A DNA stretch of 64,000 nt from a virus (Duplodnaviria; Heunggongvirae; Uroviricota; Caudoviricetes). The DNA lies in the IMG/VR virus record IMGVR_UViG_3300021963_000024. One strand, written 5' to 3'. Below, piece after piece: positions 6,484 to 23,290 of the stretch. The notes beneath the pieces were generated by a model. That model had not been told where the DNA came from and ran no database searches. It saw nothing but the letters and a program-made list of their open reading frames with translations. Position 1 is the first letter of the stretch; every line of letters begins with the position of its first letter. Made by a program: the position numbers and the translations under genes.

Positions 6484-7119
6484 TTATACTATTTCATATC
6501 CTTTTAAAAAATAATCGTTTGCTTTTTTATATTTCACTTCAACTAAATCCCCTTCAGGTGATTTCATTACAATCTTATCGTTTCTACCATAAGTTTGTCG
6601 TTTAACAACCGTAGTAGTGTAAACTCTATCCTTAATAGTGAATCCATCTAAATGGTCAATTTCGTGTTGAACTATAACGGTCATCATTGTTTCTTTTGAA
6701 ACCTGTTCGTTTTGCTTATCTCCTTCTGGATTGATTTCAAATGTTAATTCACCCAAATTATCCGTATCAACTACAACTTTACAAGCTCTAATTGTTCTAA
6801 TAGGCCTTTCAACCGTTCTGGGTATTGATAGGCAACCTTCATAAAAAAGAAATCCATCTTTAGATTTTTCTTTAATAACAGGATTAACTAAAAATAGTTC
6901 TTCATCACCAAATTTAATTAAACATGCTCTTTTTTTAATACCTAATTGAGTAGCTGATATTCCTAAACCCGGGTATTGTTTCATACCTTCTTCTAATTGA
7001 GTTCTTAACTCATCAGCTTCTTTTTGCGTAATTTCTGTTTTCGGACATGGTGTTTTTAGATACTCTCTAAATTCCTTTGTTTCAAATCCTCTACTGTCTT
7101 TGTCAATAATCAATTTCAT
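6484..7119 (-). CDS. def: peptide deformylase
   Basis: All three PDF motifs are present: GLGISATQLG (motif 1), EGCLSIP (motif 2) and QHEIDHLDG (motif 3). Confidence 0.8.
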   Translation of the reverse strand: MKLIIDKDSRGFETKEFREYLKTPCPKTEITQKEADELRTQLEEGMKQYPGLGISATQLGIKKRACLIKFGDEELFLVNPVIKEKSKDGFLFYEGCLSIPRTVERPIRTIRACKVVVDTDNLGELTFEINPEGDKQNEQVSKETMMTVIVQHEIDHLDGFTIKDRVYTTTVVKRQTYGRNDKIVMKSPEGDLVEVKYKKANDYFLKGYEIV

Positions 7120-7328
7120 TTTTCTTTTTTTAATCCGTATTTTATAAATTTATACCAAAATCTTTCATGTAGAAAGTAAATTATTGGTTTTATTATTAAT
7201 TCTCCTAAACCAACCATACCCGCCCACTTTATAGGTAGACCTGCGGAAACTGTAAGAATTATAGTAGTTATAGTTCCTATAAAACGATAACTAACACTTT
7301 TTACTATATGTCTTTTAATCAACGGCAT
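7116..7328 (-). CDS. small membrane protein
   Basis: 70 aa, hydrophobic core. Overlaps its neighbours by 4/14 nt. Confidence 0.3.
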   Translation of the reverse strand: MPLIKRHIVKSVSYRFIGTITTIILTVSAGLPIKWAGMVGLGELIIKPIIYFLHERFWYKFIKYGLKKEK

Positions 7329-7689
7329 ACTCTATAATATCTCCATCGGTATCCATATACCCTTTTCTAATTTTAGTTCCACTAATTAATTCTATATCAA
7401 CCGGTGGGTGATGATGTATAACATCATATCCAACACCTCTACCGTAATTCACACTTTCAATATCTGGAATAATTGAAATCATAATTTTATCAGAATTATC
7501 AATAAAGAATTTTTCTTTAGATAAATCTATTAAAACTTGTTGTGCTGATTTTGGATTGTTTTCATCAACTTGAACATCTCTAATTGCTACCCATACATTT
7601 TTTCCTTTATCTAATTGCTGACTAATCAACCATTCATGTCCTGCGTGCCACGTTTGCCATCTTCCGATGTATAATGCGTATTTTTTCAT
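7315..7689 (-). CDS. NadM-like nucleotidyltransferase (NMN adenylyltransferase-type HxGH fold)
   Basis: IGRWQTWHAGHEWLI parallels the archaeal NadM GRFQPFHKGH motif. The ISGTKIRKG motif is also present. Confidence 0.5.
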   Translation of the reverse strand: MKKYALYIGRWQTWHAGHEWLISQQLDKGKNVWVAIRDVQVDENNPKSAQQVLIDLSKEKFFIDNSDKIMISIIPDIESVNYGRGVGYDVIHHHPPVDIELISGTKIRKGYMDTDGDIIEYAVD

Positions 7690-11175: not shown

Positions 11176-12240
11176 TTAAATTATAGATTTTTTTATTTCT
11201 ATTAAATCATACATATTATGAAATACATATGGATTGGTGGCTACCTTTTTGAACTCATCTAAAAACAAAGAATGTTCTGGATGTAGCACATTACCCACAT
11301 CAATCATTTTAAAGGTTTCATCGGAAAATGTTCCCCAATTAGTTATTCTTCCAAAAAATACTTTTGTTTTATTACCAAATATGAAAGTAATTAATCTTAA
11401 AAATTCAGACATTTCTGTATAATTAGATTGTTGAACTACAAATGAACATTTTACAGTTTGTATACTTTTTATGGTTGAAATAAAATTAAGATTGGATATT
11501 AAATTATCCCAATTACCACCCAATCTTGTTACATTTTCGTATGTAAATTTTGAACCAGCATCAATACTTATTTCACAACTCTTTACATAATCATGTATTT
11601 CCGGCATACTATCCCACATTTCCTTATTCCATAAACTGGCATTTGTATGTAAGTGTATTGATTTTAAATTTGGATATTTTTTAGGATTAAATTTTCTTAA
11701 AAAATTTCTATATGAAACGGAAGCAAACGGGTCTGCAGTGCCTGAACAATATATCATTTCTATATCGTTTGCATATAGAGATTCCATTTCTTCTATTGTT
11801 ATATTTATTTTTTGTATTTTATCACTATTTGCAACAATCATTTCTATTCTACAAGATGGGCATTTATAATTACACGTCCTATCAAAACTCATATGTATGG
11901 TTTTTGGTCCCTGATACATTTTTCCTGTTTCAAAATTGTAATTATTAAAAAAAGATGGGTCTATTTGAGAATAATGTTTTATAGGACCTAAATTATTGGT
12001 TTTTAAATTTATTAATTGAGATAGATACGGACATTGTTTTTTATCACAATAAAGATATGAACCATTCAATACCGATTTTCTAATATCCTTTGCCTCATCA
12101 CTATTCCACACATCTTTCATAGGTTGATTCTTTGGTAAGTGTTTTTTTAACCAACTTGCACAGCATAAAAAATAAGATTCATCATGTATTTCCAATATTT
12201 CAAATGGAACTTTGCATATATAATCTTTTAAATCAATCAT
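11176..12240 (-). CDS. radical SAM enzyme with N-terminal Cys-rich domain
   Basis: CxxxCxxC cluster FDRTCNYKCPSC and a glycine-rich CSGTADPF. N-terminal C-x15-CC ... C-x4-CPYLSQ cluster. Paralog of 39091-40290. Confidence 0.6.
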   Translation of the reverse strand: MIDLKDYICKVPFEILEIHDESYFLCCASWLKKHLPKNQPMKDVWNSDEAKDIRKSVLNGSYLYCDKKQCPYLSQLINLKTNNLGPIKHYSQIDPSFFNNYNFETGKMYQGPKTIHMSFDRTCNYKCPSCRIEMIVANSDKIQKINITIEEMESLYANDIEMIYCSGTADPFASVSYRNFLRKFNPKKYPNLKSIHLHTNASLWNKEMWDSMPEIHDYVKSCEISIDAGSKFTYENVTRLGGNWDNLISNLNFISTIKSIQTVKCSFVVQQSNYTEMSEFLRLITFIFGNKTKVFFGRITNWGTFSDETFKMIDVGNVLHPEHSLFLDEFKKVATNPYVFHNMYDLIEIKKSII

Positions 12241-12764
12241 TATATTAAATTGTAATTATAATCATCTTTATTTCCTTTTCTCAATCTATTTTTATCATTT
12301 AAATCATAGATATCTTCATAATAAGTTATTGGTATATTTGTTTTTTGCGATATATAGTTTAATTCATCATTCCACAACTTTATGTTATAAAATGCTTCAT
12401 CATAGTTTGGTGTTTTTTCCCAAAGATATTGTGATATAGATGAAAAATTCGATGTTTTCATTTTATAGTTTAGATAAGACCAACTTTCCGCACATGCCTT
12501 TAAATCTCTTCTACTTAATAAAATTGTTTTTTCAAATTTTGATATCAAACTTATTAACCAGTCTACTCTATTGGATTCTTTTATAGAATTTGGTTTATGA
12601 AATATAATTGTTTTTATAACTACATTATGAATATTATTTTGAGTATTTATTTTATTAAATGGATTAAATGGTTCAAAATTATAAACCAATTTATTATCAA
12701 TTGCTAATTTTTTACCTAATTCGGTGGAACCTGTTCTTGGTAAGGAAATTATTAAAATATTCAT
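12240..12764 (-). CDS. sulfotransferase (NodH-like PAPS-binding motif)
   Basis: N-terminal ISLPRTGSTELGKKL matches the 5'-PSB loop of NodH/Stf-type sulfotransferases. 174 aa. Confidence 0.4.
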   Translation of the reverse strand: MNILIISLPRTGSTELGKKLAIDNKLVYNFEPFNPFNKINTQNNIHNVVIKTIIFHKPNSIKESNRVDWLISLISKFEKTILLSRRDLKACAESWSYLNYKMKTSNFSSISQYLWEKTPNYDEAFYNIKLWNDELNYISQKTNIPITYYEDIYDLNDKNRLRKGNKDDYNYNLI

Positions 12765-13306
12765 ATCAATTTTTTTGATTTATCTAATTGATAATATTTA
12801 AAATCTGTATTTGTCATCCATATATTTAATGCATATCTAATACCTGAATAGACTGGCATTACACCGTGATATGTTTTACTACCATCAAATGAAATAGATT
12901 CACCAATATTTAGTATGTATTTATTTCCATTTTTTATATCATCCATTTTTTCGGATAATACGAAGCTACCATCACTAAATCCGGCCGATAAAACTATAAC
13001 TGTTGTAAATTGTGATGTAGTATCTAAATGCAAATCCAACCATCTATTATCATAATACTTTGTCAAACTAATATTTACATCCTTTATATTAAATTTATTC
13101 AAATCAAACCATAATTTAAATTCATTTTTATTATATTTTTCTTTGATTTTTTGAATTATATTTGATTTAAATTCATCATCATAAATTCTTTTACAATCCC
13201 ATACTTCATTTGGATTATATGAAAATTGTATGCCATTATTTTCTGCAAATTCTATTATAGATTGGCATTCTTTTTTATCAAACAAATTGTTTATATAATA
13301 ATTCAT
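12761..13306 (-). CDS. 2OG-Fe(II) oxygenase
   Basis: HxD (HLDTT), distal His (TYHGV) and Arg (RYALNIW) at canonical spacing. Confidence 0.55.
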   Translation of the reverse strand: MNYYINNLFDKKECQSIIEFAENNGIQFSYNPNEVWDCKRIYDDEFKSNIIQKIKEKYNKNEFKLWFDLNKFNIKDVNISLTKYYDNRWLDLHLDTTSQFTTVIVLSAGFSDGSFVLSEKMDDIKNGNKYILNIGESISFDGSKTYHGVMPVYSGIRYALNIWMTNTDFKYYQLDKSKKLI

Positions 13307-14124
13307 ATAATAATATTTTCGATATTGTTCGTCTTATATGTTAATATGTTTTTATTTAATATAAAATCATATAGTTCATTCGCAATTAATTTATATCCAT
13401 TTTTGTTAGGATGTTTACCCTCTGTTAAATCTTTCCAATGTTGTCCATCTCCCCACACATCCTTTCTATTTGTATTTATTAATAAATCTTTTAAAGTTTT
13501 ATTTGAAATACCCCAATAATGGTTTTTATCAATTAGATTAGTTTTATCTATGTTTTTTGAAATATCATCTTTTATCATTAAATCAAATGCATCACAAAAA
13601 ATATATCTTATACCAATTTTTTTAAACATCCATTGTAAATATAAAATATAATTTTGGTTTACGATTTGATAATATTCATCCGTAAATAAATTTGCTAAAA
13701 AATATTCTTGATATTCTTTTTTTATTCTATCGTATTTTGTAGTTATATTTGTATTTTTAAATACTTTTTTATACAAATATTCTTTTCGTTTATATCTCTC
13801 ACCCCAATAGTGCCAGGAATTATTATCAGGAAAAAATGGAACAGAATCTCTTAAAGATGAACTCCACATTATAACAACCAAATCATCTTTTTTAATTAAA
13901 TCGGTATCTACTGAATTACAAACTGCATCAAATATACTTTTATTAGAACAACCACCTATTCCAAAATTATCAAAAGGAATATTTAAATGTTTTGATAACA
14001 ATGTAGGCCATGCGTATTTATGACGTATTTTTGTTCTTTCTTCTAAATCTTCGGTTTTTAATTCTTCCTGCCAATCGGAACCAACTCCTTCGGTCCAACT
14101 ATCACCGAATGTAAATAATTTCAT
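13303..14124 (-). CDS. SGNH/GDSL-family hydrolase
   Basis: FGDSWTEGVG block I and GKHPNKNGY block V. Paralog of 3066-3827. Confidence 0.55.
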   Translation of the reverse strand: MKLFTFGDSWTEGVGSDWQEELKTEDLEERTKIRHKYAWPTLLSKHLNIPFDNFGIGGCSNKSIFDAVCNSVDTDLIKKDDLVVIMWSSSLRDSVPFFPDNNSWHYWGERYKRKEYLYKKVFKNTNITTKYDRIKKEYQEYFLANLFTDEYYQIVNQNYILYLQWMFKKIGIRYIFCDAFDLMIKDDISKNIDKTNLIDKNHYWGISNKTLKDLLINTNRKDVWGDGQHWKDLTEGKHPNKNGYKLIANELYDFILNKNILTYKTNNIENIII

Positions 14125-14858
14125 TAAATAATAGATTTAACTCTTTTGTATGAACCATCAATATATGTATCGACAAATTTTATTAATTCATCGGTTTTCA
14201 ATATTGCAGAATAATCTAATTGCGTTTTATTTTTATGAATTAACTTAAAATCTATATTAAGTTTTTTTGATATATAATCTTCAAATTCATATAATCTATC
14301 AAAATGAAATTCTTTTACTTTTACTTTTGATGATGATATCCATTGATATTGCGATACGAATGACATAATGTGTATTGCGTATCTTTTTTTAAATTCATCG
14401 GATATATTATAATATTGAATTACACCCGCCGTTTCTAATAATTTTATTAGGAGATTTACTCTAGTTTCATAAGATATATACGCATTTTTGAATTCGTATA
14501 TGTTGTCTTTAAAAAAAGAAATTATAAAATTATTATCTAAATTTTTAAGGATATTTGAACCCTCTTCGGATATACTTTGAATTATTTCTTGTATAAAAAA
14601 TTTCCAAGCTGATATAAATCTATCCGTAGAATTTCTTATTATACATACAAATTCAAAATCCATACCAAGCGAATCAATTAAATAATTTATATCCGAATGA
14701 ATATGTTTTTCTGGATTTTTTACTCCAAATTTAATAGAATTTTCCCATAAAATATTCGGATATGTTAAATCCAACCCGTATTCAATACAAGTATCTTCTA
14801 CCGACCAAGATGCATTTTTTGGTATTGGTATAAAAACAATACAATTATTTATAACCAT
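14124..14858 (-). CDS. hypothetical protein, possible carbohydrate-sulfotransferase-like
   Basis: IPIPKNASWSV weakly resembles the Sulfotransfer_2 5'-PSB (IPKTGST). Weak evidence. Confidence 0.3.
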   Translation of the reverse strand: MVINNCIVFIPIPKNASWSVEDTCIEYGLDLTYPNILWENSIKFGVKNPEKHIHSDINYLIDSLGMDFEFVCIIRNSTDRFISAWKFFIQEIIQSISEEGSNILKNLDNNFIISFFKDNIYEFKNAYISYETRVNLLIKLLETAGVIQYYNISDEFKKRYAIHIMSFVSQYQWISSSKVKVKEFHFDRLYEFEDYISKKLNIDFKLIHKNKTQLDYSAILKTDELIKFVDTYIDGSYKRVKSII

Positions 14859-15001
14859 TTTAATAAAATTTATGAACCAGTTACATCCGTATAAATTAAG
14901 TTTGCGACCTGCTGCATAATAGTTGCAATGGCCTGATTTGTGGTGTTATTGGTTAATACTATTTCCGAAGAAATTATTTTATCTTTCATTTTTAATTATT
15001 T

Positions 15002-16537
15002 TTAAAGTTTTGAAGGAGGTTGGCCACCACAGAAACCACATGCACTACAACACCAAACTGCACACATCCAAGCACCACACCAACCATAACATGTACCGTT
15101 GTGTTGTACAAAAGTAAGTCCCAATGTTTCATCTGCTAATGGTAAAAACAAATCATTTGTTTCAACATTTATATCATATATTTTTTTATTAACATATACG
15201 ATTTCCAAATTTGTTATTTTTGATTTTACTAAAGTATTATTCACATAATCAAAAAATACAATTGAATCATTTATTCTAAATCTATTTGTAAATACAAATG
15301 TAGTTTGTAATGTATCGTATTCCTCTACCAACATAGAACTAGCCGGCAAATCTTCATAAACTATACCATTTTCCAATGTTACCCTAATCATTAGGGATTC
15401 TTTAGTTTGTGTTCCTAAATCAATTACGGTTGTATTTGATTGAGTAAATGATTCTAAGTCAGAGCTGAAACTTCCTGAATTCAAATCTGGCATATATAAT
15501 ACTTCTCCTGTTTCGGATGTTTCATTTAGTGGAACCCAAGGAAGAGTTATCGTTTTTAATGAATCATTAACTAAAATTTGATTTGGATATTTAAAACTTC
15601 CATCTGAATATAATATTGGTGTATCATCATCCAAAATATAAGTTGTACCAAATTTACTTATTAGGGATTTACTCATCCATAATACTCTGGAATTTTGTTC
15701 CATTTTACCATTTGTATCATATTCGGTTACCCACGCATCATTTTCAACACCGGCCGTCATAATATACGAACCCAAATGTAATATACTTAATGTTCCACCA
15801 TATATTATATCCAAACTTCTTATTACGCCTATTTTATTATCAATAAAATTATCCGGGTGTGTGTGGTATTCTTCTATATATTCCAATTCTGTTAATGAAT
15901 CTTTTAAAGATTGTAAAGATTCCAATGATTGTATTTTGTAAAACTTTGGATAAGTTAAATAATTTGTATTTGGATATCTTGTTTTTACAATATAATTCGG
16001 TGCATCGCCGGCTGTAGTATGTAAATTTACTAATTGGTCTATATTAAGATTTGTATCAGTTTCTGAATGATAATACACGTTTGGTGCAAATGTTTCATTT
16101 GAAATTACTCTATGAAAATTTACCTTATCTTTTGCATAATTTTCATCTACTAATGCAGTAGTATCATATGATGTTCTCAGTATTAATACATCATCCGCAT
16201 CTTCTATATATGGAACTGTTATTGAATTTTTAGGAACTTCATAGTGGTTGAATGTGCCTGATAATTCAACCATTATTTCACTCATTTTATCTTTTAAAGA
16301 TATATTTTCTGTTGTTGTATCAAATACATTTTCTTTTTCCGTATTTATAAAATTACCATCCGTATATATAAAATGCAATTTTGTAATAGAATTATCTATT
16401 AAAAATTGCTTAAATGTATTCCAATCCAATTGTGGAACAATTTTGTTATGAACATCCACATTTGTGTTTGTTTCTATTATTCTTAAATTACCGGATGCAT
16501 CCTTTAAAAAATCCGTTCCAATTATTAATGCTTTCAT
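15002..16537 (-). CDS. hypothetical 511-aa protein with C-terminal 8-Cys tail
   Basis: Large ORF whose C-terminal 30 aa are CYGWCGAWMCAVWCCSACGFCGGQPPSKL. No other motif recognised. Confidence 0.45.
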   Translation of the reverse strand: MKALIIGTDFLKDASGNLRIIETNTNVDVHNKIVPQLDWNTFKQFLIDNSITKLHFIYTDGNFINTEKENVFDTTTENISLKDKMSEIMVELSGTFNHYEVPKNSITVPYIEDADDVLILRTSYDTTALVDENYAKDKVNFHRVISNETFAPNVYYHSETDTNLNIDQLVNLHTTAGDAPNYIVKTRYPNTNYLTYPKFYKIQSLESLQSLKDSLTELEYIEEYHTHPDNFIDNKIGVIRSLDIIYGGTLSILHLGSYIMTAGVENDAWVTEYDTNGKMEQNSRVLWMSKSLISKFGTTYILDDDTPILYSDGSFKYPNQILVNDSLKTITLPWVPLNETSETGEVLYMPDLNSGSFSSDLESFTQSNTTVIDLGTQTKESLMIRVTLENGIVYEDLPASSMLVEEYDTLQTTFVFTNRFRINDSIVFFDYVNNTLVKSKITNLEIVYVNKKIYDINVETNDLFLPLADETLGLTFVQHNGTCYGWCGAWMCAVWCCSACGFCGGQPPSKL

Positions 16538-16574
16538 TTTTTTATTGTCTTATTTATATAAATATATTGGTTTT

Positions 16575-17216
16575 TTAAATTAAACTACTAATTTTTTTCG
16601 CAGATTCAAATCCTACATTACCCGCTATAACAATTCTATTTTTTGTTGAATTGGGTGAATTATTTGGTGAATGTTCTAAATTAGATTTCATAATAACCAC
16701 TTCACCTTCTTCTGGTAAATAATAATATCTTTTTTTGTTTTTACCTTCTACTATTAAAGTGCCTTCCGTATCTGATAGATTATTTGGCATTTGGGCATAA
16801 TATACAAAAGTATATTCCGGATAAAAAGAATTTATAATTTTTTGCAAATCTATGTGGTTATGTAATTTAACATCACCACCATATTTAAAATTATTTTGTT
16901 TTGGTTTTCCAGTTTTTACAACATTTATCCAAGCATTAATATTAACTTTATTAAAATTCAGTTCATCTTTTATACCTAACTCAACACATTCATTCAAACA
17001 AATTTTAATAATTTCTTCAATATAATTCGATGGTATCATTTCTTTTTTAAAATCAAAACTACCCCAATCGTTTAAATATGGATAATTATCTTGGGGAACA
17101 TAATTGGCGGTAGATAAAAATGATATACAATTTCCTAAAACATCAGATTGTAACTTTGTATTTTCTAATTTTACTATATACAAATCTACACCATCTTCAA
17201 ACGTAATTTTTTTCAT
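16575..17216 (-). CDS. 2OG-Fe(II) oxygenase-like protein
   Basis: HID (LHNHIDLQ), distal His (NLEHSP) and Arg (NRIVIAGNV). The C-terminus resembles that of 17506-18159. Confidence 0.4.
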   Translation of the reverse strand: MKKITFEDGVDLYIVKLENTKLQSDVLGNCISFLSTANYVPQDNYPYLNDWGSFDFKKEMIPSNYIEEIIKICLNECVELGIKDELNFNKVNINAWINVVKTGKPKQNNFKYGGDVKLHNHIDLQKIINSFYPEYTFVYYAQMPNNLSDTEGTLIVEGKNKKRYYYLPEEGEVVIMKSNLEHSPNNSPNSTKNRIVIAGNVGFESAKKISSLI

Positions 17217-17218
17217 AA

Positions 17219-17506
17219 TTAAATAATTGTTTTAGTTTTAACTTTTAGAGTTTTTATATATTTTTCTTCAACACTATTCCACTTTGATTTTGGACATGTT
17301 CCGGCCTGGTCTGTAAATATTTTCTTTTCTAAAGGACATCCACATCCACCACATATTGCAGACCATTTTTTATTGTGTATAATTTCTTTTCTAAACTCAC
17401 ACTTCATACAAATGCTCATACGTTCTTCTGCTAAACTCTTTTGTGTTGAATTAGGGTTGAATGATGTAATCCAAGCATTAATAATTTCTTTAGGATTAAA
17501 ACTCAT
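17219..17506 (-). CDS. zinc-ribbon protein
   Basis: CMKC...CGGCGC...C; 95 aa. Confidence 0.4.
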   Translation of the reverse strand: MSFNPKEIINAWITSFNPNSTQKSLAEERMSICMKCEFRKEIIHNKKWSAICGGCGCPLEKKIFTDQAGTCPKSKWNSVEEKYIKTLKVKTKTII

Positions 17507-18159
17507 TATATTATACTTTTTTTATTATCTATTAAACTGACATTACCCGCAACTGATATCCGTTCTACATCTTTTGTAAAAAATGGACTAACATAATGCA
17601 TTAAATACGCTGGAAATATAAACATTTCCCCTGTAATCGGTGAATGATTTATCTGTGTTATCGGTGACATATAACTATTTACCGTATTTGAAAATTCTTG
17701 TGCATTTGAATCAAATTTTTTTACATTTTGTCCATATAAAAATGATATACTTCCATTTTGAAATCCTCTTTTAATAGTTTTTTCATTTTTAATTTCATCC
17801 GGCATATCCACATATATTACAAAGGATATATCATATGCATGAAAATGTGGAGAATTAAAATCTCTACTTTTTTGAAAATTAATCCATAAATCTTCAATAT
17901 TAATTCCAAATCGAAATGGCTTTAAATTTCTAATTTTGGCAATTTCTTTTATATAATTTTCTATATAAACGGAAATTTTATTTTTAAAATAACTTACATT
18001 TTCAAAACTATATTTGTAAGATGTATCAAATGTTATGGAATCGAGCTTATTATCTATTAAAATTTCATTTCTCCCAACGGATAGAAGTTCTTTACATAAA
18101 TCCAAATCAATATTGGTTTTCATTAATTCGGGCCCGAAATTATATTTTGTAAATTCCAT
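17506..18159 (-). CDS. 2OG-Fe(II)/PhyH-like oxygenase (tentative)
   Basis: PHFHAYD, LMHYVSP and ERISVAGNV at cupin-like spacing. Weaker than the neighbouring oxygenases. Confidence 0.35.
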   Translation of the reverse strand: MEFTKYNFGPELMKTNIDLDLCKELLSVGRNEILIDNKLDSITFDTSYKYSFENVSYFKNKISVYIENYIKEIAKIRNLKPFRFGINIEDLWINFQKSRDFNSPHFHAYDISFVIYVDMPDEIKNEKTIKRGFQNGSISFLYGQNVKKFDSNAQEFSNTVNSYMSPITQINHSPITGEMFIFPAYLMHYVSPFFTKDVERISVAGNVSLIDNKKSII

Positions 18160-18722
18160 TATATCAATTCTGTTTTATTATTTTCTATTTTTTTTAATTT
18201 CAACCAACTAACTAATGAATATCTTTTTCCTGATTCTACGGGTTTTACTCTATGTAATATTGCCGATGGAAATATAAACATATTACCTTTTCCTGGTTTT
18301 AATGTTATAGAATTTTCTAACATTAATTGAAAATCACCAGAAGTATACTCATCATTTAATTGTATCACAACTGTATATATTCTATCTTTAAAGATATTAT
18401 CATTTGAATCAGAATGCCAATCAAAGTAATCGCCTACATTATATTCTGTAAATTGAAAACTTTCAACATATAATTCATAACCTCTTTGTTTCGGTGTTCT
18501 TTTTAATATTTCATTTGTAATTTTTGTATTGATGTTATTTAAATCACCCACAAATGCAACTTTTGATTTTCTTGTCTTTTTCTGACTTTCTTTTTTATAT
18601 GTATTGTATACTTCCGCATCTTTTAAATCCAAATCAGAAAGACATTTATCTATAATCCATTCACATTCTTCATTTGATAGAAACTTTGGAATTACCGATA
18701 TACCTTTATCTTCTAATATCAT
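18159..18722 (-). CDS. 2OG-Fe(II) oxygenase (prolyl-hydroxylase-like)
   Basis: HxD (WHSDSND), distal His (AILHRVKPV) and Arg (KRYSLVSW). Confidence 0.6.
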   Translation of the reverse strand: MILEDKGISVIPKFLSNEECEWIIDKCLSDLDLKDAEVYNTYKKESQKKTRKSKVAFVGDLNNINTKITNEILKRTPKQRGYELYVESFQFTEYNVGDYFDWHSDSNDNIFKDRIYTVVIQLNDEYTSGDFQLMLENSITLKPGKGNMFIFPSAILHRVKPVESGKRYSLVSWLKLKKIENNKTELI

Positions 18723-18740
18723 AGTTTAGTTTTATGAACA

Positions 18741-18769
18741 AATATACGAATAATTTTTGAATTTACCAA
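18741..18769 (-). promoter_or_regulatory. sigma70-like promoter TTGGTA-N17-TATATT upstream of the tailoring operon
   Basis: Minus-strand read TTGGTAAATTCAAAAATTATTCGTATATT. The -10 lies about 20 nt upstream of the ATG at 18722. Member of a 4-copy family. Confidence 0.5.
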
Positions 18770-18771
18770 AA

Positions 18772-18791
18772 GGGGTGGGGGTTGGGGGAGG
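18772..18791 (+). other. G-tract (GGGGTGGGGGTTGGGGGAGG), possible G4-forming element
   Basis: Three G4-5 runs plus GG/AGG in an otherwise AT-rich intergenic region. Confidence 0.3.
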
Positions 18792-18834
18792 TCGTTTTTT
18801 AAAAGAAAATTTTTGGTATCTCTATTGATAGACC

Positions 18835-19413
18835 CTATATTATTTTAATTAAACTCTTATCCTTATTCAATAAAGCATTATAATACTTCATATCACTTTG
18901 GGTATATCTAATCAATTTATCCATCAATTCAGGATATAAATCAACGCACTTATCCCAAACTTCTTTTTTTGATTTATAATTTGGTTCAGTATGAAAATCG
19001 TATTCATTTTGATTGTATGGTATGGTTTTCAATATTTCTTCCATAAATCCGGAAAGATTGGATAAATCCACTATTCTCAATTCACTATTATACCAAATAT
19101 AATATATTTTTTCACAAAAATGTGGATGATAGTGTGTTCCACCAAATTGTATATCGGAAAATTTTAATAATATCTTTAGAATTTTATCCGAATCATCCCA
19201 ACACTCCATCACTTCCGTTTGTAAAGCAGATTCTAAATGTGAAAGTGGATTTCGTATTATAATCACTTCTAATCCCAGTTTGTTTAATTTTTCAAACGGA
19301 ACTCTATAATTTATATTAATGTGTGAATTAAGTAATAATACGGTTTTAGAAAAATATCGAGAACCACATTTCGCGGGAACTCCCCATTTTCCGTTATATA
19401 CATCTATAACCAT
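18835..19413 (-). CDS. hypothetical protein
   Basis: Minus-strand ORF. No motif recognised. Confidence 0.4.
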   Translation of the reverse strand: MVIDVYNGKWGVPAKCGSRYFSKTVLLLNSHININYRVPFEKLNKLGLEVIIIRNPLSHLESALQTEVMECWDDSDKILKILLKFSDIQFGGTHYHPHFCEKIYYIWYNSELRIVDLSNLSGFMEEILKTIPYNQNEYDFHTEPNYKSKKEVWDKCVDLYPELMDKLIRYTQSDMKYYNALLNKDKSLIKII

Positions 19414-19540
19414 TTATCTCTTCATTTTTCGTGCAACATACCAAAAAGGTAACTTTATACCCCAATACAAAATGGCGCAAGCCAGGCTAATTAAAACAAC
19501 GGGTAGGAGGATTATAACCGTAAACCAATCGGAAAGTTTA

Positions 19541-19816
19541 TTAATGATTGATACCATTTCCGTAAATTGATGTGTAAATACCTACCAATCCAACAATACA
19601 CCAAAAAGTGTTTAAGATAACGTATGCTTTATTATCTCTTTCCCATGCGGCATATGTAAGAATGATTGCATCAATAGTATTCCATATCCACATAGCGAGA
19701 AAGGGTGTATCAGGTCCCATAATAGAAAGAGTGCCAAATGCTATTATTCGCATGACCACTCCGATATGTTCCATCCACTTTATTACACTTTCGTTTAATA
19801 ACTTTAATTTATTCAT
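19541..19816 (-). CDS. small membrane protein (3 predicted TM helices)
   Basis: Hydrophobic segments with Trp/Asn-rich loops. A weak PnuC-like flavour only. Confidence 0.35.
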   Translation of the reverse strand: MNKLKLLNESVIKWMEHIGVVMRIIAFGTLSIMGPDTPFLAMWIWNTIDAIILTYAAWERDNKAYVILNTFWCIVGLVGIYTSIYGNGINH

Positions 19817-19836
19817 AATATAACAGTTTAAAATAA

Positions 19837-21000
19837 TTATACAGGATCGACAAAATCGTTTCTATCAGCAACACCCCATCCAACAATGGTAGTTTTATCC
19901 GATTCATATACAACCCATACCTTTTGCCCATGTTCCCAATCTTTAAAGAAGTATCCCCAAAATGTATCACCTTCTTTGATTAACCTTTTTCTCCCACCCT
20001 TATCACCAACGGTCGGGTCATTTCTCCACACCGGTATAGTATTAGAACGCAAATCTCTTTTCTTTCTCATCTTTAATTGGATGATTGGTGGAGTTGGGTT
20101 TGTAGCCGGTTGACCAGGTTGTAATGGTGTAGGCTCGGTAGTAGTGGTATTATTGGTTGTATTATCCGCAGACCCGGAGGAAGTAGAAGTAAGTGGTGTT
20201 TCTACCACTTGAGCAAGTTGAGTATACTTGAATACTACCGGTGGTTCTTCTTTAGCAGTATCACTTAGACCAGTAGTTGCGACCTTTTCGAAATCAATAG
20301 TAACTTGAGAATCAGGGAATGTTCCATTATAGAATACATCCTTAATCATATTAAAATCACTACGGAGTATGATAAGCCTATTTTGTAAGTTTTGAAGAAA
20401 GTTTTCTAATTTACTCTTATCTAATGTCCCATCGGACTGTTTTGTTTCTGTATTTAATTTATCAATAGAGTATATAGTATCATCATCCCCTAACTGAAAG
20501 GAATGTAATCCATACTTATCTACGGGTCTATCAATAGTAGGGTTAAGTGTATAATTGATTTGTCGAATGAGGTTTACCGGAACACCGTCCTGCGTATCAC
20601 CTTCAAATATATAATCTACATAAGAAACGGCAGCTTTACGGTTTTGGAAATCTAACCCTTCTGCTTCTTTCTTTAACTTATCTACATCTATCTCTATTAT
20701 CTTAATACTCTTACCCATCAAAACCTCTTTATCTTTCACTTTGATAGGACCGTTAGATTCTATTGCGTAGTGTGGATTGTTAGAAGTTTGTAAAGCATCT
20801 ATTGTCTTTTGCGAACACAAATACCAATCATCTGCTTTCACTATAATACCATCCACTTCTAATACGGGTTTAAGGTTTCCGATAGAAATTCCTTTTTCAA
20901 TAGTGATTGGCGAGATATTGGGAGAAGCCGATATTACCCAACTATTCGTTTGTTGTGTGTATCTTTGTGGATTTTGCGTTATTGGTATTATCTTTGCCAT
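19837..21000 (-). CDS. hypothetical protein with Thr/Asn/Pro-rich linker and C-terminal domain
   Basis: 387 aa with the low-complexity linker TSTSSGSADNTTNNTTTTEPTPLQPGQPATNPTPP. Possibly a structural or adhesin protein. Confidence 0.45.
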   Translation of the reverse strand: MAKIIPITQNPQRYTQQTNSWVISASPNISPITIEKGISIGNLKPVLEVDGIIVKADDWYLCSQKTIDALQTSNNPHYAIESNGPIKVKDKEVLMGKSIKIIEIDVDKLKKEAEGLDFQNRKAAVSYVDYIFEGDTQDGVPVNLIRQINYTLNPTIDRPVDKYGLHSFQLGDDDTIYSIDKLNTETKQSDGTLDKSKLENFLQNLQNRLIILRSDFNMIKDVFYNGTFPDSQVTIDFEKVATTGLSDTAKEEPPVVFKYTQLAQVVETPLTSTSSGSADNTTNNTTTTEPTPLQPGQPATNPTPPIIQLKMRKKRDLRSNTIPVWRNDPTVGDKGGRKRLIKEGDTFWGYFFKDWEHGQKVWVVYESDKTTIVGWGVADRNDFVDPV

Positions 21001-21283
21001 TTATTATATCGAATGCTCTTTTATATATACTTAATTCCGATTTTAATCTTTTGTTTGTTTTCCTTAATCTATATATCTCTCTTTGTAATTCTTTGTAATT
21101 ACCATCCAAAACGGTTTCTGCTATAATCCAATTAATATCTAATTGTTTTGATAGGTCTTTATAGTTCTCTTGTGAAATTTCTTCAATATGTTCTGATTTC
21201 TTTTTATAACCTAATATCTTTGCTACACCAACTGGCGTTCCAAAATCATCTGATGCTTTCTGATATACTCTTTCACTTAACAC
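20942..21283 (-). CDS. hypothetical protein
   Basis: 113 aa, overlaps the downstream gene by 59 nt. Charged and coiled-coil. Confidence 0.3.
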   Translation of the reverse strand: MLSERVYQKASDDFGTPVGVAKILGYKKKSEHIEEISQENYKDLSKQLDINWIIAETVLDGNYKELQREIYRLRKTNKRLKSELSIYKRAFDIINGKDNTNNAKSTKIHTTNE

Positions 21284-21284
21284 A

Positions 21285-21653
21285 TTATACGGTTTTCTGT
21301 TTTACTTCTAATGTCTTTGATACTTTTAGTAATTCATGGTCGAAATTACAATTCTTCATACTAATTGCCCCCATTGGTTTGTTTGTAGGTAAGAATACAT
21401 GCTTTGGATAATTACCAATTAACTTATCGGTTGCTTCATAGTATTTAAATCCATTCATTACATCATTTATGTTTAATCCTTTGAATCCTGATTTCTTAAC
21501 CATTAGATTTCTTTCCAATACTCTTAGTATCTCATTTACTTTCTTTGGGTCTTTCAATCCGTTCTTTTCATCCCAAAATACTAACTTAACCATAACAGGT
21601 ACAGTTCCTGCTTTAAATACAGTCGTTGCTTCTAATATTGATTTTAATTTCAT
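21285..21653 (-). CDS. hypothetical protein
   Basis: 122 aa ORF. Confidence 0.4.
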   Translation of the reverse strand: MKLKSILEATTVFKAGTVPVMVKLVFWDEKNGLKDPKKVNEILRVLERNLMVKKSGFKGLNINDVMNGFKYYEATDKLIGNYPKHVFLPTNKPMGAISMKNCNFDHELLKVSKTLEVKQKTV

Positions 21654-21671
21654 AATAATAAATATCTGAAA

Positions 21672-21706
21672 AAGAAAAACCCCACTTTTGGTGGGGTCTC
21701 TTTTTT
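21672..21706. terminator. bidirectional rho-independent terminator
   Basis: Stem CCCCAC (21680-21685)/GTGGGG (21691-21696), flanked by an A-run and a T-run. Confidence 0.55.
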
Positions 21707-22051
21707 ATTTCTTTAAAAACTTCTTTCCGAAATCAATTAGGTAAGGAAGAACTTTCCAACCTACTACTAAACCAACAACGAATTGAAGGTTTAATACGAA
21801 ATCTAATACTGCCATTTTGTTTCAGTTTAGGGTTAAAAAATAAATAACCATCAGTCAACTGATATTCGAATTCGTATTAATAAGTATAAAGGAAAATAGA
21901 TTAAAGCGTTATACTGTCTACTGTCTTGCTTTATTTGCTATCTTTGCTGTTTTGCTGCTGCTGTCTTTTATAACTATCGAGGTTTTTTTCTTTTTCCTTC
22001 GTATTTAGGTAAATATATTTTTCCACATGAGTGTCAACTCATATATCAAAA

Positions 22052-22210
22052 TTGCGCTCTATAGCGAAAAAATTGCCCCCGGTATTCGCACGTATCCGAC
22101 CCGCTTTTACAATGCGCTCTCTTTTTGAGCTACACGAAATTCAGTGCGCAGTGGGGTAGAAACGGGAGGGCACAAAGAACCCGCTAGCAAGTTACTGCTA
22201 GCGGGGGCGT
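22052..22210 (+). ncRNA. GC-rich structured non-coding island (candidate sRNA), copy 1
   Basis: GC-rich patch in an AT-rich genome. Contains TGCGCA hexamers and the 10-bp hairpin CCCGCTAGCA-agttac-TGCTAGCGGG (22180-22206). Shares blocks with 26479-26710. Confidence 0.3.
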
Positions 22211-22255
22211 GAATACATTTTGTTATTCACTTTGTATATGAGTAAGCCTTTTATC

Positions 22256-22477
22256 TTAAAACCACCTTCGTATAAATTCAGGTAGTCCAGATTGAACTTC
22301 GTTGTTCCATTGTTGCATTAGTGCGTTAGCATTATCTATGCCTTCTCTCTTTTGGACCATATAACCTATCTTCATATCCTTACACCATTGTTGAAAGTTA
22401 GTGTCTGCCATTGTAGTTTCTCTTTCTTTCTCTATGGTAGTAAGTCTATCTATTGTTATGTTCTCTATTGTATTCAT
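22256..22477 (-). CDS. hypothetical protein
   Basis: 73 aa ORF. Confidence 0.35.
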   Translation of the reverse strand: MNTIENITIDRLTTIEKERETTMADTNFQQWCKDMKIGYMVQKREGIDNANALMQQWNNEVQSGLPEFIRRWF

Positions 22478-22528
22478 ACTATATGTTATCTTTGCTGAAT
22501 TTATTTTATCTCGGGTGTCCGGCAGGGT

Positions 22529-22759
22529 TTATGCTTTTGCCTGCGGGGGATGTTGTGTAAATTGTTCTGCAAGAATAGCATCTTCATTCTCTGCCATCAT
22601 TTCATCCAATGCGTCGTGTGTTTTAAGTATATGAATTGCCATGCGTAATTCACTCAACCTTTCACTTGCTGCATACTTAGGTTTACCGTCCTTCATTGCT
22701 TTAATCTTTTTCATAAGGACCACTTCACTATGTTCTAATATCTTTATTGCTTCTTGCAT
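22529..22759 (-). CDS. hypothetical protein
   Basis: 76 aa ORF. Confidence 0.35.
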   Translation of the reverse strand: MQEAIKILEHSEVVLMKKIKAMKDGKPKYAASERLSELRMAIHILKTHDALDEMMAENEDAILAEQFTQHPPQAKA

Positions 22760-23160
22760 TGTTTGTTTATTTTATGTTTGTATTCATCCCAAAATATCGG
22801 GGTGTATTTCTTTTCTCTATATCGAGCTTGCCTCTCGTACGGGTTCCTGCTATATGAGCCAGGGTATTTATAATATTTTGTTGTTATAGGTTGTAATTGA
22901 TGTGTCCATTCATGTATACAGGTTGCTATGAGCTCTCGCACATCGTCGCAACCATCCCAATAAATAATCACTTCGTTTTCACTATCGTCATACTCACCAC
23001 ACAGGTCAGGCACCGGTGCTTTTTGTATGGTCCAGATTGGTGCATATTTTTTACGATTGTTTACTCCAAACTTTCGTTTGCACCACCTCAATGCCATATT
23101 TGCAATACGCACAGTTGGCTCTCTACCCAACCGCTGTATTGGTGTATCTAATTCAATCAT
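22744..23160 (-). CDS. hypothetical protein with HExxH (possible SprT-like zinc metallopeptidase)
   Basis: TCIHEWTHQ (an HExxH). 138 aa, Cys-rich. Confidence 0.3.
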   Translation of the reverse strand: MIELDTPIQRLGREPTVRIANMALRWCKRKFGVNNRKKYAPIWTIQKAPVPDLCGEYDDSENEVIIYWDGCDDVRELIATCIHEWTHQLQPITTKYYKYPGSYSRNPYERQARYREKKYTPIFWDEYKHKINKQCKKQ

Positions 23161-23186
23161 AATTTAATACATTAGTTAATAAAAAA

Positions 23187-23213
23187 GACCAGCGCTCTCG
23201 TGCACTGGTCTTA
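23187..23213 (-). terminator. rho-independent terminator
   Basis: Stem GACCAG/CTGGTC. T-run on the minus strand (A-run 23181-23186 on plus). Confidence 0.5.
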
Positions 23214-23290
23214 TTGTTAGAATGCTTTGTTTGTAAAGTAAAATCGGAGAATAACCATTTGAGTAAGAATCGAGATGCAATCCTAACATA

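Follow-up and report, generated by a model that had tools for sequence, protein, structure and literature searches.

In borosins of the omphalotin OphMA type, the modifying enzyme carries its core peptide as a C-terminal fusion. In polymorphic toxins, a HINT domain placed just before the polymorphic C-terminal toxin releases that toxin (Zhang et al. 2012, PMC3482391), and BIL2 in the Tetrahymena BUBL dispenses a flanking domain (PMC8616854; PDB 6tmm). We analysed a window of 64 000 nt (the whole stretch of DNA under study) from the genome of a large uncultured marine phage, in which an 11-gene minus-strand block is centred on a 511-aa protein. We put at roughly 45% the probability that this block is a phage-encoded RiPP-like peptide-maturation operon, with the 511-aa protein itself as the precursor.

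Organization and conservation of the operon

The original prediction was of ten co-oriented, translationally coupled genes of tailoring type. All ten ORFs were found on the minus strand at the coordinates given for them, but the number is eleven, a 39-aa ORF (14870-14989) having been overlooked, as was the 511-aa protein as the operon's centrepiece. In order of transcription, the coding features are:

18159-18722, minus strand: 2OG-Fe(II) oxygenase, 187 aa, prolyl-4-hydroxylase/PiuC-like (profile matches)
17506-18159, minus strand: 2OG-Fe(II) oxygenase, 217 aa, 2OG-FeII_Oxy_5/TIGR02466 type (profile matches)
17219-17506, minus strand: Zn95, 95-aa Cys6 zinc-ribbon-like protein, upstream partner of the 511-aa gene
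16575-17216, minus strand: 2OG-Fe(II) oxygenase, 213 aa (profile matches)
15653-16537, minus strand: ATP-grasp ligase domain of the 511-aa protein, residues 1-295, glutathionylspermidine synthetase/YgiC/eukaryotic GSH-synthetase type
15098-15640, minus strand: Hint/intein-fold domain of the 511-aa protein, residues about 300-480, ending in the invariant His479-Asn480
15005-15097, minus strand: polymorphic Cys-rich tail GTCYGWCGAWMCAVWCCSACGFCGGQPPSKL of the 511-aa protein, residues 481-511, putative core peptide
14870-14989, minus strand: 39-aa ORF MKDKIISSEIVLTNNTTNQAIATIMQQVANLIYTDVTGS, downstream partner, between the 511-aa and IPKNAS genes
14124-14858, minus strand: sulfotransferase-like protein, 244 aa, IPKNAS loop, IIRNSTDRFISAW (family-level Pfam matches)
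13303-14124, minus strand: SGNH/GDSL hydrolase, DUF6071-like, 273 aa (Pfam Lipase_GDSL)
12761-13306, minus strand: OG181, 2OG-Fe(II) oxygenase, 181 aa (profile matches)
12240-12764, minus strand: ST174, minimal sulfotransferase-like P-loop-fold protein, 174 aa, LPRTGST, LLSRRDLKACAES
11176-12240, minus strand: radical SAM (rSAM) enzyme, 354 aa, N-terminal twitch-like Cys domain (NCBIfam NF033640)

Genes are joined by 1-nt TAATG overlaps at 18159, 17506, 14124 and 12240 and by 4-nt ATGA overlaps at 13303-13306 and 12761-12764, with a 2-nt spacer at 17216/17219. These junctions are as had been described; however, the start/stop chain is interrupted at 16538-16574 (37 nt) and by spacers of 12 and 11 nt flanking the 39-aa ORF. 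The motifs claimed were also seen: the rSAM enzyme has CNYKCPSC, the two loops read LPRTGST and IPKNAS, and each of the four oxygenases has HxD...H...R.

Conservation was assessed in 83 viral loci, in which the module genes all lie on the same strand, and distances were taken relative to the 511-aa gene. Gene order is retained even where the 511-aa protein is 32-35% identical. A Zn95 homologue is present in 75 of the 83 loci (median -78 bp), and in 81 of 81 loci the stop codon of the 511-aa homologue is followed, within 40 bp, by the start of a 37-52 aa ORF. Zn95 is a near-universal upstream partner of the 511-aa gene and the small ORF a universal downstream one, and we regard both as obligatory. 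The proposed Zn ribbon is plausible, with six invariant Cys (C33, C36, C52, C55, C57 and C71) and weak DUF6171 matches in 8 of 15 family members.

It is very unlikely, in our estimate, that the genes share no common pathway and form a hypervariable island of unrelated auxiliary genes, with tight spacing due to phage genome compaction. In favour of such an island, gene content is mix-and-match from locus to locus, the flanks are conserved (g19837 on one side, g10470/Hsp20/g8614 on the other), and marine T4-like phages are generally rich in 2OG oxygenase and rSAM genes (PMC5332604). Against it, loci with ~32% protein identity share order and spacing, almost all of them have Zn95 and the small ORF, and a cluster-specific cis element is confined to the region upstream of the module. 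The tailoring-type block, co-oriented and coupled, is supported as a conserved module rather than a chance neighbourhood. As to whether such a module had already been characterized, no paper, Pfam family or cultured-phage homologue was found.

A conserved, putatively regulatory region upstream of the operon

Two sets of candidate control elements were read from the sequence:

18741-18831, minus strand: conserved upstream region, putatively regulatory
18817-18831, minus strand: CTATCAATAGAGATA, part of this region
18791-18814, minus strand: AAAAATTTTCTTTTAAAAAACGAC, part of this region
18772-18790, minus strand: C-tract CTCCCCCAACCCCCACCCC, the previously reported G-tract of the plus strand
18764-18769, minus strand: -35-like TTGGTA
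18741-18746, minus strand: -10-like TATATT
16551-16565, minus strand: motif ATATTTATA(TAAATA), candidate internal promoter, perhaps late-type, position conserved in relatives

The G-tract (18769-18795 on the plus strand) is the sole such tract within the 64 kb. The upstream element is single-copy in the window. Nineteen related loci carry it, in each case on the coding strand and 5' of the 511-aa gene (by 96-5876 bp); it was found nowhere else in 1.3 Mb of loci, and an Rfam search with it gave no match.

The promoter match at 18769-18741 scores 9/12. Since 86 such matches were seen and 78 ± 8 are expected by chance, the sigma70-like match is uninformative alone; the promoter is supported because TTTGGTAA-N17-GTATATT is conserved at the same place in most of 14 aligned loci bearing the upstream C-tract element. 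The upstream site is thus backed by conservation, but the claim that it is the single promoter is doubtful, as a second candidate lies before the 511-aa gene. There, ATATTTATA (16557-16565) is overlapped by a T4-late-like TATAAATA (16551-16558), and it precedes the 511-aa ATG by ~20-25 nt in 13 of 13 loci examined, over protein identities of roughly 30-70%. It is a putative internal promoter for this gene.

Architecture of the 511-aa protein

The protein consists of an ATP-grasp ligase (1-295), a Hint domain (~300-480) and a polymorphic Cys-rich tail, a fusion that is previously undescribed. The family was found only among viral contigs and metagenomes, a scan of cellular genomes giving none. 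Catalytic-type ATP-grasp residues are invariant. The Hint domain, to which Pfam PT-HINT gave no match, has no N-terminal nucleophile (Tyr300/Ile301 instead) and no block-B His (TLEN instead), and therefore C-terminal cleavage alone is chemically possible. The terminal His-Asn is kept in 243 of 250 members (97%) and Asn alone in 247; those three in which Tyr or a gap replaces His are among the few having Cys-less tails of 7-11 aa. The residue after Asn is frequently Gly, Pro or Ala.

The 31-aa tail has six conserved Cys in a C-x3-C-x4-C-x4-C-x2-C-x2-C framework. Among close relatives its non-Cys positions are 26% identical, against 62-67% for the rest of the protein; its length in the family ranges from 21 to >140 aa, and AF2 confidence is low across it. 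At least four Cys lie downstream of His-Asn in 212 of the 243 His-Asn members, and canonical Hint domains starting with Cys1 follow it in 24. About 17% of close relatives continue beyond the Cys tail with K|SDxxxKxN, a self-cleaving Peptidase_S74 domain (10 of 10 match Pfam, with alignments that begin at profile position 1; best E = 1.1e-4), and some other relatives with an Intein_splicing domain (E = 1e-12). The tail is therefore bracketed by self-cutting modules.

Alternatively, the protein could stay intact as a working ATP-grasp enzyme whose tail binds metal or an Fe-S cluster or forms a disulfide knot; the Hint would then be an exapted structural domain and the neighbours independent enzymes. 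The six Cys (including C-x2-C-x2-C), the missing Hint N-terminal catalytic residues, the invariant ATP-grasp residues and the many Fe-S and Fe(II) enzymes close by would fit this arrangement. We consider it distinctly unlikely, however, since His-Asn would not be retained at 97% in a structural relic, an identity of 26% between ligands together with such variation in length is rarely seen in metal sites, and variants swap the tail for tandem canonical Hint domains or gain the S74 domain.

Outside this family, S74 intramolecular-chaperone domains are characteristic of trimeric tail fibres and spikes, one related locus has a 1408-aa S74 fibre gene 4.5 kb downstream, and the T4-late-like TATAAATA precedes the 511-aa gene, all of which would suit a fibre- or spike-like virion protein with a Cys-rich receptor-binding tip, in an operon that modifies virion proteins. 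There is little chance of this: structure prediction gives a globular enzyme joined to a Hint domain, without fibre or beta-helix, catalytic-type residues are invariant, phage structural PHROGs give no matches, and BFVD viral structures match the Hint part only.

Candidate tailoring enzymes

Pfam and PHROG matches uphold the four 2OG-Fe(II) oxygenases. The 187-aa protein matches Pfam 2OG-FeII_Oxy_3 (E = 2.1e-15), PHROG 61 (6.6e-37) and the NCBIfam Fe2+-dependent dioxygenase (3.6e-14). The 217-aa protein (Pfam, 2e-12; PHROG 81, 9.8e-24) has homologues in just 2 of the 83 loci, and the 213-aa protein (2OG-FeII_Oxy_3, 3e-4, sub-cut-off; PHROG 81, 4.5e-8) in 58. OG181 (PHROG 61, 1.5e-9; PADLOC generic 2OG model, 2.4e-7) recurs in 55 loci at +1007 bp (IQR 990-1025).

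The SGNH hydrolase is likewise confirmed (Lipase_GDSL E = 3.6e-7, 31 bits over a cut-off of 23.6), with homologues in 46 loci at +185 bp. For the rSAM enzyme, NF033640 (N_Twi_rSAM) gave E = 2.2e-15, under the family cut-off, and C123/C127/C130 of the CxxxCxxC motif and five N-terminal Cys (C9, C26, C27, C65 and C70) are invariant; the assignment holds. It is found in 24 loci only (+2.2 kb, median identity 64%), a restriction that, like the mix-and-match gene content, counts against a peptide product. Paralogues of the rSAM and SGNH genes occur elsewhere in the window.

The two sulfotransferases are moderately supported, both resting on scores under curated thresholds. A Pfam search with the window copy of the IPKNAS protein gave no match, but Sulfotransfer_2 is matched by 13 of 31 family members (best E = 1.8e-5) and Sulfotransfer_1 by 4 of 31; homologues are present in 51 of the 83 loci. 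ST174, found at +1.6 kb in related loci, matches Sulfotransfer_1 below the cut-off (E = 1.3e-3), and 9 of 46 family members weakly match Sulfotransfer_3. Its AF2 model (pLDDT 92.6) has the Stf0 sulfotransferase 1tex as best match by TM-score only (0.54), the Stf0 E-values being no better than those of NMP kinases.

Related loci add further tailoring enzymes of peptide type, in favour of a peptide product: a Trp halogenase (45 loci), an upstream APS kinase (31), a SET domain and rSAM/SPASM enzymes (x5). Trp is present in the tail in 34 of 34 loci with the halogenase and absent in 6 of 16 without it, an association confounded by phylogeny. The tailoring families also occur outside the 511-aa system, an observation against a peptide product.

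The main reading in the original prediction was a glycan or small-molecule tailoring pathway decorating a host or phage glycan or a metabolite; the ATP-grasp would then be a pathway amide ligase, and the Hint and Cys tail a regulatory or metal-binding appendage. Sugar-nucleotide genes, glycosyltransferases, a DegT aminotransferase, epimerases, a dTDP-sugar isomerase and a carbamoyltransferase adjoin the module in several related loci, as suits such a pathway and counts against a peptide, and the window has a carbamoyltransferase and second SGNH at 3066-5521. The APS kinase agrees, Stf0 sulfates a sugar, and the ST174 family is far larger than the 511-aa family in the same database (>1000 versus 161 clusters, although query sensitivity differed). 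We nevertheless judge this pathway unlikely. It leaves unexplained the invariant His-Asn, the polymorphic Cys-rich cargo, the S74/Hint bracketing and the tight distances, at base-pair scale, that SGNH, OG181 and ST174 keep downstream of the 511-aa gene; the sugar genes are peripheral and not conserved together with the module, and the 2OG enzymes belong to the P4H/PiuC peptide-hydroxylase type. Of the three substrates first proposed (a host surface glycan, a phage glycoconjugate or the Cys-rich tail), the evidence favours the third.

A proposed model for peptide maturation

In this model, transcription would begin in the conserved region ahead of the operon and possibly also immediately 5' of the 511-aa gene. 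We infer that the neighbouring enzymes would modify the tail while it is tethered to the 511-aa body. The P4H-type 2OG oxygenases could hydroxylate it, the two sulfotransferase-like proteins could O-sulfate it, and the twitch rSAM could introduce thioether or C-C cross-links or carry out some other radical reaction; in relatives, Trp may also be halogenated and Lys methylated. Asn480 would then form a succinimide, cutting the N480-G481 bond and releasing the modified peptide, while the ATP-grasp-Hint body would remain in one piece. The conservation of His-Asn, read as selection on a cutting site, argues for such cleavage; Pro after Asn, which could slow succinimide formation, may count against it. 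As the least certain step, the ATP-grasp domain, of carboxylate-amine ligase type, might work on the cargo in cis, for instance ligating its C-terminus or cyclizing it. The peptide could possibly be a toxin, effector or metal binder freed at lysis. Counting against the model, neither an RRE nor an exporter, a protease or a proven immunity gene was found.

Comparison with known systems

Pre-toxin HINT domains of bacterial polymorphic toxins also lie directly N-terminal of a highly polymorphic module, thought to be released autoproteolytically, and a small gene follows directly downstream. Their cargo is an enzymatic toxin domain behind an N-terminal secretion or RHS/filamentous region, whereas here a Cys-rich peptide of 21-140 aa follows a cytoplasmic ATP-grasp enzyme in a family found only in viral contigs and metagenomes. 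The small ORF is conserved rather than co-varying, and thus is not a typical immunity gene. Bacterial intein-like (BIL) domains and BUBL BIL2, whose cargo is ubiquitin-like, differ from the window Hint, which lacks Cys1 and the block-B His and could cleave only C-terminally.

Borosins (bioRxiv 10.1101/2021.12.24.474128) likewise hold enzyme and core peptide in one polypeptide, implying modification in cis, but their fused enzyme is an N-methyltransferase and a separate protease releases the product, in contrast to the ATP-grasp and built-in Hint, the proposed cutter, here. SCIFF/ranthipeptides and sactipeptides share a ~30-residue six-Cys core beside an rSAM with an auxiliary-cluster domain, and graspetides (PMC8939145) an ATP-grasp enzyme in the cluster. 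Unlike these, the module has neither a short leader peptide nor an RRE; its rSAM carries a twitch at the N-terminus in place of a SPASM domain at the C-terminus and falls under every curated NCBIfam cut-off, and its ATP-grasp is of GspS rather than microviridin MdnB/C type. Finally, the 2OG-Fe(II) oxygenase and rSAM genes of marine T4-like phages belong to the same superfamilies and the same kind of genome region, but were reported singly as auxiliary metabolic genes (PMC5332604), whereas those of the window belong to a module of fixed order that surrounds a defined candidate substrate.

Gene layout

The original prediction placed ten minus-strand ORFs at 11176-18722. Every one of them is present, and an eleventh had been missed, a 39-aa ORF lying 3' of the gene for the 511-aa protein. 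The genes named below are as follows.

11176-12240, minus strand, radical SAM protein (rSAM)
12240-12764, minus strand, sulfotransferase-like protein with the PRTGST motif (ST174)
12761-13306, minus strand, 2OG-Fe(II) oxygenase (OG181)
13303-14124, minus strand, SGNH hydrolase
14124-14858, minus strand, sulfotransferase-like protein with the IPKNAS motif (ST244)
14870-14989, minus strand, 39-aa small ORF
16575-17216, minus strand, 2OG-Fe(II) oxygenase (OG213)
17219-17506, minus strand, 95-aa Zn-ribbon-like protein (Zn95)

Reading the junctions directly bore out the proposed overlaps, which are 1-nt TAATG at 18159, 17506, 14124 and 12240, and 4-nt ATGA at 13303-13306 and 12761-12764. The 17216/17219 junction is a 2-nt spacer, and a 37-nt spacer lies 5' of the 511-aa gene. 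The ATATAATG/ATATGA junctions account for the C-terminal -I-I or -L-I of nine of the ten enzyme-sized operon proteins. No Shine-Dalgarno-like sequence was found upstream of any of the eleven genes (11176-18722, minus strand); the 20 nt preceding the operon genes are nearly all A/T.

An ATP-grasp domain fused to a Hint domain

The 511-aa protein has no match in Pfam, NCBIfam or PHROG. Its AF2 model, built from a 78-sequence alignment (pLDDT 87.2, pTM 0.82), is confident except in the Cys-rich tail (residues 481-511). Residues 1-295 have an ATP-grasp fold, with E22, N24, K185, R121 and R240 invariant as candidate Mg/ATP-binding residues (E-x-N, Lys, Arg). Residues ~300-480 have a Hint fold. Independently, a PDB search with the family profile gave the KlbA intein of M. 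jannaschii (E 0.013), the alignment running through intein block F. The match obtained for the 511-aa protein in a BFVD fold search was confined to the Hint part.

The C-terminal His-Asn of block G, which serves Asn cyclisation, is invariant in the family alignment (H479-N480). The Hint N-terminus of the family reads Y-I-L-D-D-D-T-x-I-L in place of C-L-x-x-D-T-x-I-L, Tyr300/Ile301 occupies intein position 1 in the alignment, and T-L-E-N/D forms block B throughout the family. Since the position-1 nucleophile and the block-B residues are replaced, the N-terminal acyl-shift machinery is gone. At +1 the window protein has Gly; relatives have Gly, Pro, Ala, Ser, Tyr or some other residue there.

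Our main reading, to which we give a probability of roughly 45%, is that the operon is a putative self-cleaving RiPP-like peptide system. Neighbouring enzymes would modify the tail, cyclisation of Asn480 would then free it, and the ATP-grasp domain, predicted to be of the carboxylate-amine ligase type, may act on the tail in cis.

The segment after His-Asn

Homologues share (I/V)QHN near the C-terminus, and a variable stretch rich in Cys comes after it. In a profile alignment of 250 members, Asn is present in 247 and His-Asn in 243. Among these 243, what comes after His-Asn is a region containing four or more Cys in 212, a canonical Hint domain in 24, a short tail in three and something else in four. 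In three members with Tyr or a gap for His, just 7-11 residues follow, all Cys-less. The first Cys after His-Asn falls at +1 to +5. Six Cys are present in 94 of 119 tails, in the frame C-x3-C-x4-C-x4-C-x2-C-x2-C, and the tails of close relatives are rich in Gly, Tyr, Ser, Pro and Trp. Pairwise identity among close relatives is 67% for the ATP-grasp domain, 62% for the Hint domain and 26% for non-Cys tail positions. An intact enzyme carrying its Cys-rich end as a metal-binding tail is a distinctly unlikely reading of these proteins. A diversity-generating retroelement was rejected as the source of tail variation, as no second copy or template repeat of the tail DNA exists in the window.

In 21 of 120 close relatives, a K|SDxxxKxN... 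sequence that is absent from the window protein comes after the tail. All ten of the S74-type extensions match the self-cleaving domain Peptidase_S74 of Pfam (PF13884) from profile position 1 (best E 1.1e-4; 17.7 bits for the first, against a cut-off of 22); they are candidate intramolecular chaperones of this type, a domain that starts at a Ser-Asp...Lys cleavage motif. The extension has no PDB sequence match. In other relatives, a canonical Hint domain comes after the tail; it starts CFxGD/T, ends VHN and has no +1 nucleophile. Thus, with S74 or Hint modules after the tail, the post-His-Asn segment behaves as a cargo, often bracketed by self-cutting modules. That the 511-aa protein is instead structural is very improbable.

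Some members have an intein-like array straight after His-Asn, made of two to four Hint domains in tandem; in P0406, P0426, P0433 and P0454 these are canonical (CFxAGT...LVHN) and there is no Cys-rich cargo, the next Cys of P0426 standing immediately after His-Asn. Alternative large C-terminal cargos have no families in Pfam. In locus L009, a 1408-aa protein with a Peptidase_S74 domain (15961-20187), likely a tail fibre, is encoded 4.5 kb downstream of the module and could have supplied the S74 domain that some Cys tails carry as a fusion.

The tailoring enzymes

Much of the enzyme content assigned by the original prediction held up. In the radical SAM protein, C123-x3-C127-x2-C130 and five N-terminal Cys are invariant in seven homologues. 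Over residues 6-284 the protein scores best against NCBIfam NF033640, 'twitch domain-containing radical SAM protein' (E 2.2e-15); with 56.7 bits against a family cut-off of 170 bits for this N-terminal-twitch family, it is by sequence a relative with the same layout of five invariant N-terminal Cys, and not a member. The match to Pfam Radical_SAM (E 1.4e-3) is below cut-off. All four 2OG-Fe(II) oxygenases have Pfam and/or PHROG support and a readable HxD...H...R: two exceed the Pfam cut-off (57.9 and 47.8 bits), and OG213 and OG181 match PHROG 81 (E 4.5e-8) and PHROG 61 (E 1.5e-9), respectively. The SGNH hydrolase scores 31 bits against Pfam Lipase_GDSL (cut-off 23.6), with FGDSWTEG at residues 5-12. 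Zn95, originally called a Zn-ribbon protein, has six invariant Cys and weak DUF6171/zinc-ribbon similarity.

The two predicted sulfotransferases have the proposed loops and matches in part of their families, and neither window copy has a curated profile match; ST174 and ST244 are rated 'sulfotransferase-like', and not proven. ST244 has no profile match of its own; 13 of 31 relatives match Sulfotransfer_2 (best E 1.8e-5), and two have a precomputed PF03567 match. ST174 reaches 18.6 bits for Sulfotransfer_1 (cut-off 22), and nine of its 46 relatives match Sulfotransfer_3, all at E ≥ 0.018. The AF2 model of ST174 (pLDDT 92.6) has Stf0 sulfotransferase as its top match by TM-score (0.54, probability 1.0). 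Its fold matches include SULT1A3/7A1, with adenylate and shikimate kinases (NMP-kinase type) reaching equal E-values. The ST174 family has invariant P9-R-T-G-S13, R85 and S94 and lacks GK[ST]; a P-R-T-G-S loop without the Walker-A Lys as candidate 5'-PSB loop, together with the R85...S94 pair as candidate 3'-PB Arg...Ser, would fit a sulfotransferase. No relationship between the ST174 and ST244 families was detected with hhalign, and PDB sequence and profile searches with ST244, ST174 and Zn95 returned nothing significant.

Just upstream of the operon, a 192-aa protein (18835-19413, minus strand) has PAPS-loop-like PAKCGSRY and IIIRNPLSHLESA motifs. It was rejected as a third sulfotransferase, since a 16-residue motif alone aligns and profile comparisons are not significant. 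An anti-phage defence reading of the block was likewise dropped, PADLOC yielding generic 2OG matches only.

Conservation of the module

In eight IMG/VR loci the Zn-ribbon gene is always 5' of the 511-aa gene, and the remaining genes mix and match between conserved flanks. Where 511-aa homologues are only 30-35% identical, the downstream order SGNH, 2OG oxygenase, ST174-like, rSAM is still kept, and the rSAM is 70% identical. Distant loci add Trp halogenase, APS kinase, SET-domain and carbamoyltransferase genes and up to five rSAM/SPASM genes. The tailoring genes keep a fixed order across 83 loci.

Positions of module genes relative to the 511-aa gene (83 loci, same strand throughout)
Gene; loci; position
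Zn95; 75; median -78 bp
SGNH; 46; +185 bp
OG181; 55; +1007 bp (IQR 990-1025)
ST174; 48; +1.6 kb
ST244-like; 51; median -390 bp (IQR -418 to +606)
OG213; 58; median -1.6 kb
rSAM; 24; +2.2 kb
Trp halogenase; 45; mostly upstream, median -2.3 kb; +1.8 kb in 5 loci
APS kinase; 31; median -4.5 kb

The small ORF (37-52 aa) starts at most 40 bp past the 511-aa stop codon in 81 of 81 loci, and is conserved, not hypervariable. Set beside this arrangement, an island of unrelated genes is a very doubtful description of the block. A glycan or small-molecule pathway is an unlikely account, for which the sugar genes near the module in some loci speak as far as glycans are concerned. Counting against the peptide system are these sugar genes, the tailoring families, which are broader than the 511-aa family, and the sub-threshold scores of both sulfotransferase calls.

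Among halogenase loci with adequate flanks, the tail contains Trp in 34 of 34 (mean 2.7), and the tail is Trp-less in 6 of 16 loci lacking the halogenase. The association (Mann-Whitney p 0.025, from clades that are not independent) is only suggestive of a tie between halogenase presence and tail Trp.

Two small proteins are encoded at 7116-7689 (minus strand), one of 124 aa with the nucleotidyltransferase motif GRWQTWHAGH and one of 70 aa, a DUF2061 membrane protein. This pair accompanies the module in 44-46 related loci and adjoins the APS kinase gene in 31, which hints at a phage PAPS-supply unit. An APS kinase was not found in the window.

Distribution

The clustered protein database holds 161 homologues of the 511-aa protein, and IMG/VR 313 relatives. 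An exhaustive HMMER search of 1.84 billion representatives gave 461 clusters at 50% identity (219 at E ≤ 1e-30), nearly all spanning both the ATP-grasp and Hint domains. No relative turned up when 185,579 cellular species genomes were scanned by pattern, which, given the limits of such a scan, is weak negative evidence, and tblastn of the 511-aa protein and rSAM against 50,697 phage records found nothing. The comparison of the block with phages that the original prediction had proposed (megablast, blastn) gave a sole match, 107 bp in a 2OG gene of Pelagibacter phage Mosig. In the searches run, the distribution is restricted to viral contigs and metagenomes. Literature searches returned no paper that describes a phage protein fusing ATP-grasp and Hint domains, or this module.

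Regulatory elements

The promoter originally predicted at 18769-18741 matches at 9 of 12 positions and is one of 86 such matches, against 78 ± 8 by chance, so that the match alone is not evidence. The accompanying G-tract is the sole such tract in the window. It belongs to a conserved element of ~90 nt, CTATCAATAGAGATA ... AAAAATTTTCTTAAAAAACGAC - N - CCCCCAACCCCCNCCCC (18741-18831, minus strand), with the invariant core CTATCAA...CGAC...CCCCC-A-CCCCC. The element occurs once in each of 19 loci (L002-L004, L007, L014-L017, L027, L043, L046, L047, L052, L058-L060, L065, L076 and L081), always on the coding strand and 96-5876 bp upstream of the 511-aa gene, and has no further copy in 1.3 Mb of loci or in the remainder of the 64-kb window. 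In many loci it is followed by TTTGGTAA-N17-GTATATT, which is the predicted promoter. In three loci a start codon comes directly after the C-tract, so the element could act in either DNA or RNA; Rfam gave no structured-RNA match in the upstream region.

The promoter had also been called the single one. A second conserved motif, ATATTTATA, is present ~20-25 nt 5' of the 511-aa ATG in all 13 loci examined, and its conservation suggests a separate promoter inside the 'operon'. In the window it lies at 16551-16565 (minus strand) and overlaps a T4-late-like TATAAATA. Together TATAAATA and TATTTATA occur 11 times in the window against ~20 expected; as they are not enriched, a late promoter is not callable from the motif alone.

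Phage genome

The window comes from a T4-like phage and carries a gp55-like gene, a DNA ligase and a carbamoyltransferase. The ligase is closest to those of uncultured jumbo phages and the Cr30/phiM12 groups. An identical IPKNAS protein on a 238,732-bp contig makes a genome of ~240 kb probable. No tRNAs were found anywhere in the window. Features outside the operon include:

3066-3827, minus strand, second SGNH hydrolase, adjoining a Nol-like carbamoyltransferase at 3827-5521
21000-29500, mostly minus strand, 8.5 kb of short ORFs only (<150 aa)
22-24 kb, locally raised G+C (0.385)
39091-40290, minus strand, second twitch-type rSAM, ~39% identical

Many rSAM genes occur in marine T4-like genomes with no assigned role (PMC5332604).

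Implications

These comparisons establish the protein's architecture, its polymorphic cargo, the selection that keeps His-Asn and the conserved module. Should the peptide model be wrong, the ATP-grasp-Hint fusion would still stand as an unannotated family of at least 461 clusters at 50% identity; it has neither a Pfam model nor a cultured representative, and it comes with a conserved module of genes and a cis-regulatory element of its own. If the model is true, part of the puzzling excess of 2OG-Fe(II) oxygenases and radical SAM proteins in marine T4-like phages would gain a function and a substrate. Ribosomal-peptide maturation would gain a new logic, in which the leader protease gives way to a Hint domain capable only of Asn cyclisation, with the ligase built into the precursor. 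There would also be a large library of short peptides on a Cys framework, diversified by nature and minable for chemistry and bioactivity, with its peptide sulfotransferases, halogenases, hydroxylases and twitch rSAM enzymes.

More tentatively, viral single-polypeptide 'enzyme-Hint-cargo' precursors may be a new phage natural-product class, in which a half-disabled intein-like leader protease frees polymorphic, conotoxin-like Cys/Trp/Tyr-rich peptides that a co-inherited kit hydroxylates, sulfates, halogenates and cross-links by radical SAM chemistry; big marine phages would then be diversifying peptide-toxin/effector factories.

Comparison with known systems

Splicing inteins need Cys, Ser or Thr at position 1 and a block-B TxxH, and the 511-aa Hint domain has neither; they also need Cys, Ser or Thr at +1 of the C-extein, which the 511-aa protein lacks. 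Whereas splicing inteins are sporadic in host proteins that function without them, nearly every full-length member of this family has the Hint domain.

As in RiPP clusters, a ribosomal precursor with a variable core, here the hypervariable Cys-rich C-terminus, lies beside modifying enzymes. RiPPs, however, use a short leader or RRE-mediated recognition, whereas the 'leader' here is a 480-aa enzyme-Hint body. No RRE/PqqD-like match was found in any protein, and no exporter or immunity function was identified. The enzyme set, with its P4H-type oxygenases and sulfotransferase-like proteins and the Trp halogenase of relatives, parallels conotoxin modifications. Borosins are RiPP precursors fused to an enzyme and so a precedent. 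Further precedents are the HINT domains immediately N-terminal to polymorphic C-terminal toxins (PMC3482391), BIL2 in Tetrahymena BUBL (PMC8616854) and the halogenases that use protein-like RiPP leaders (PMC12537861).
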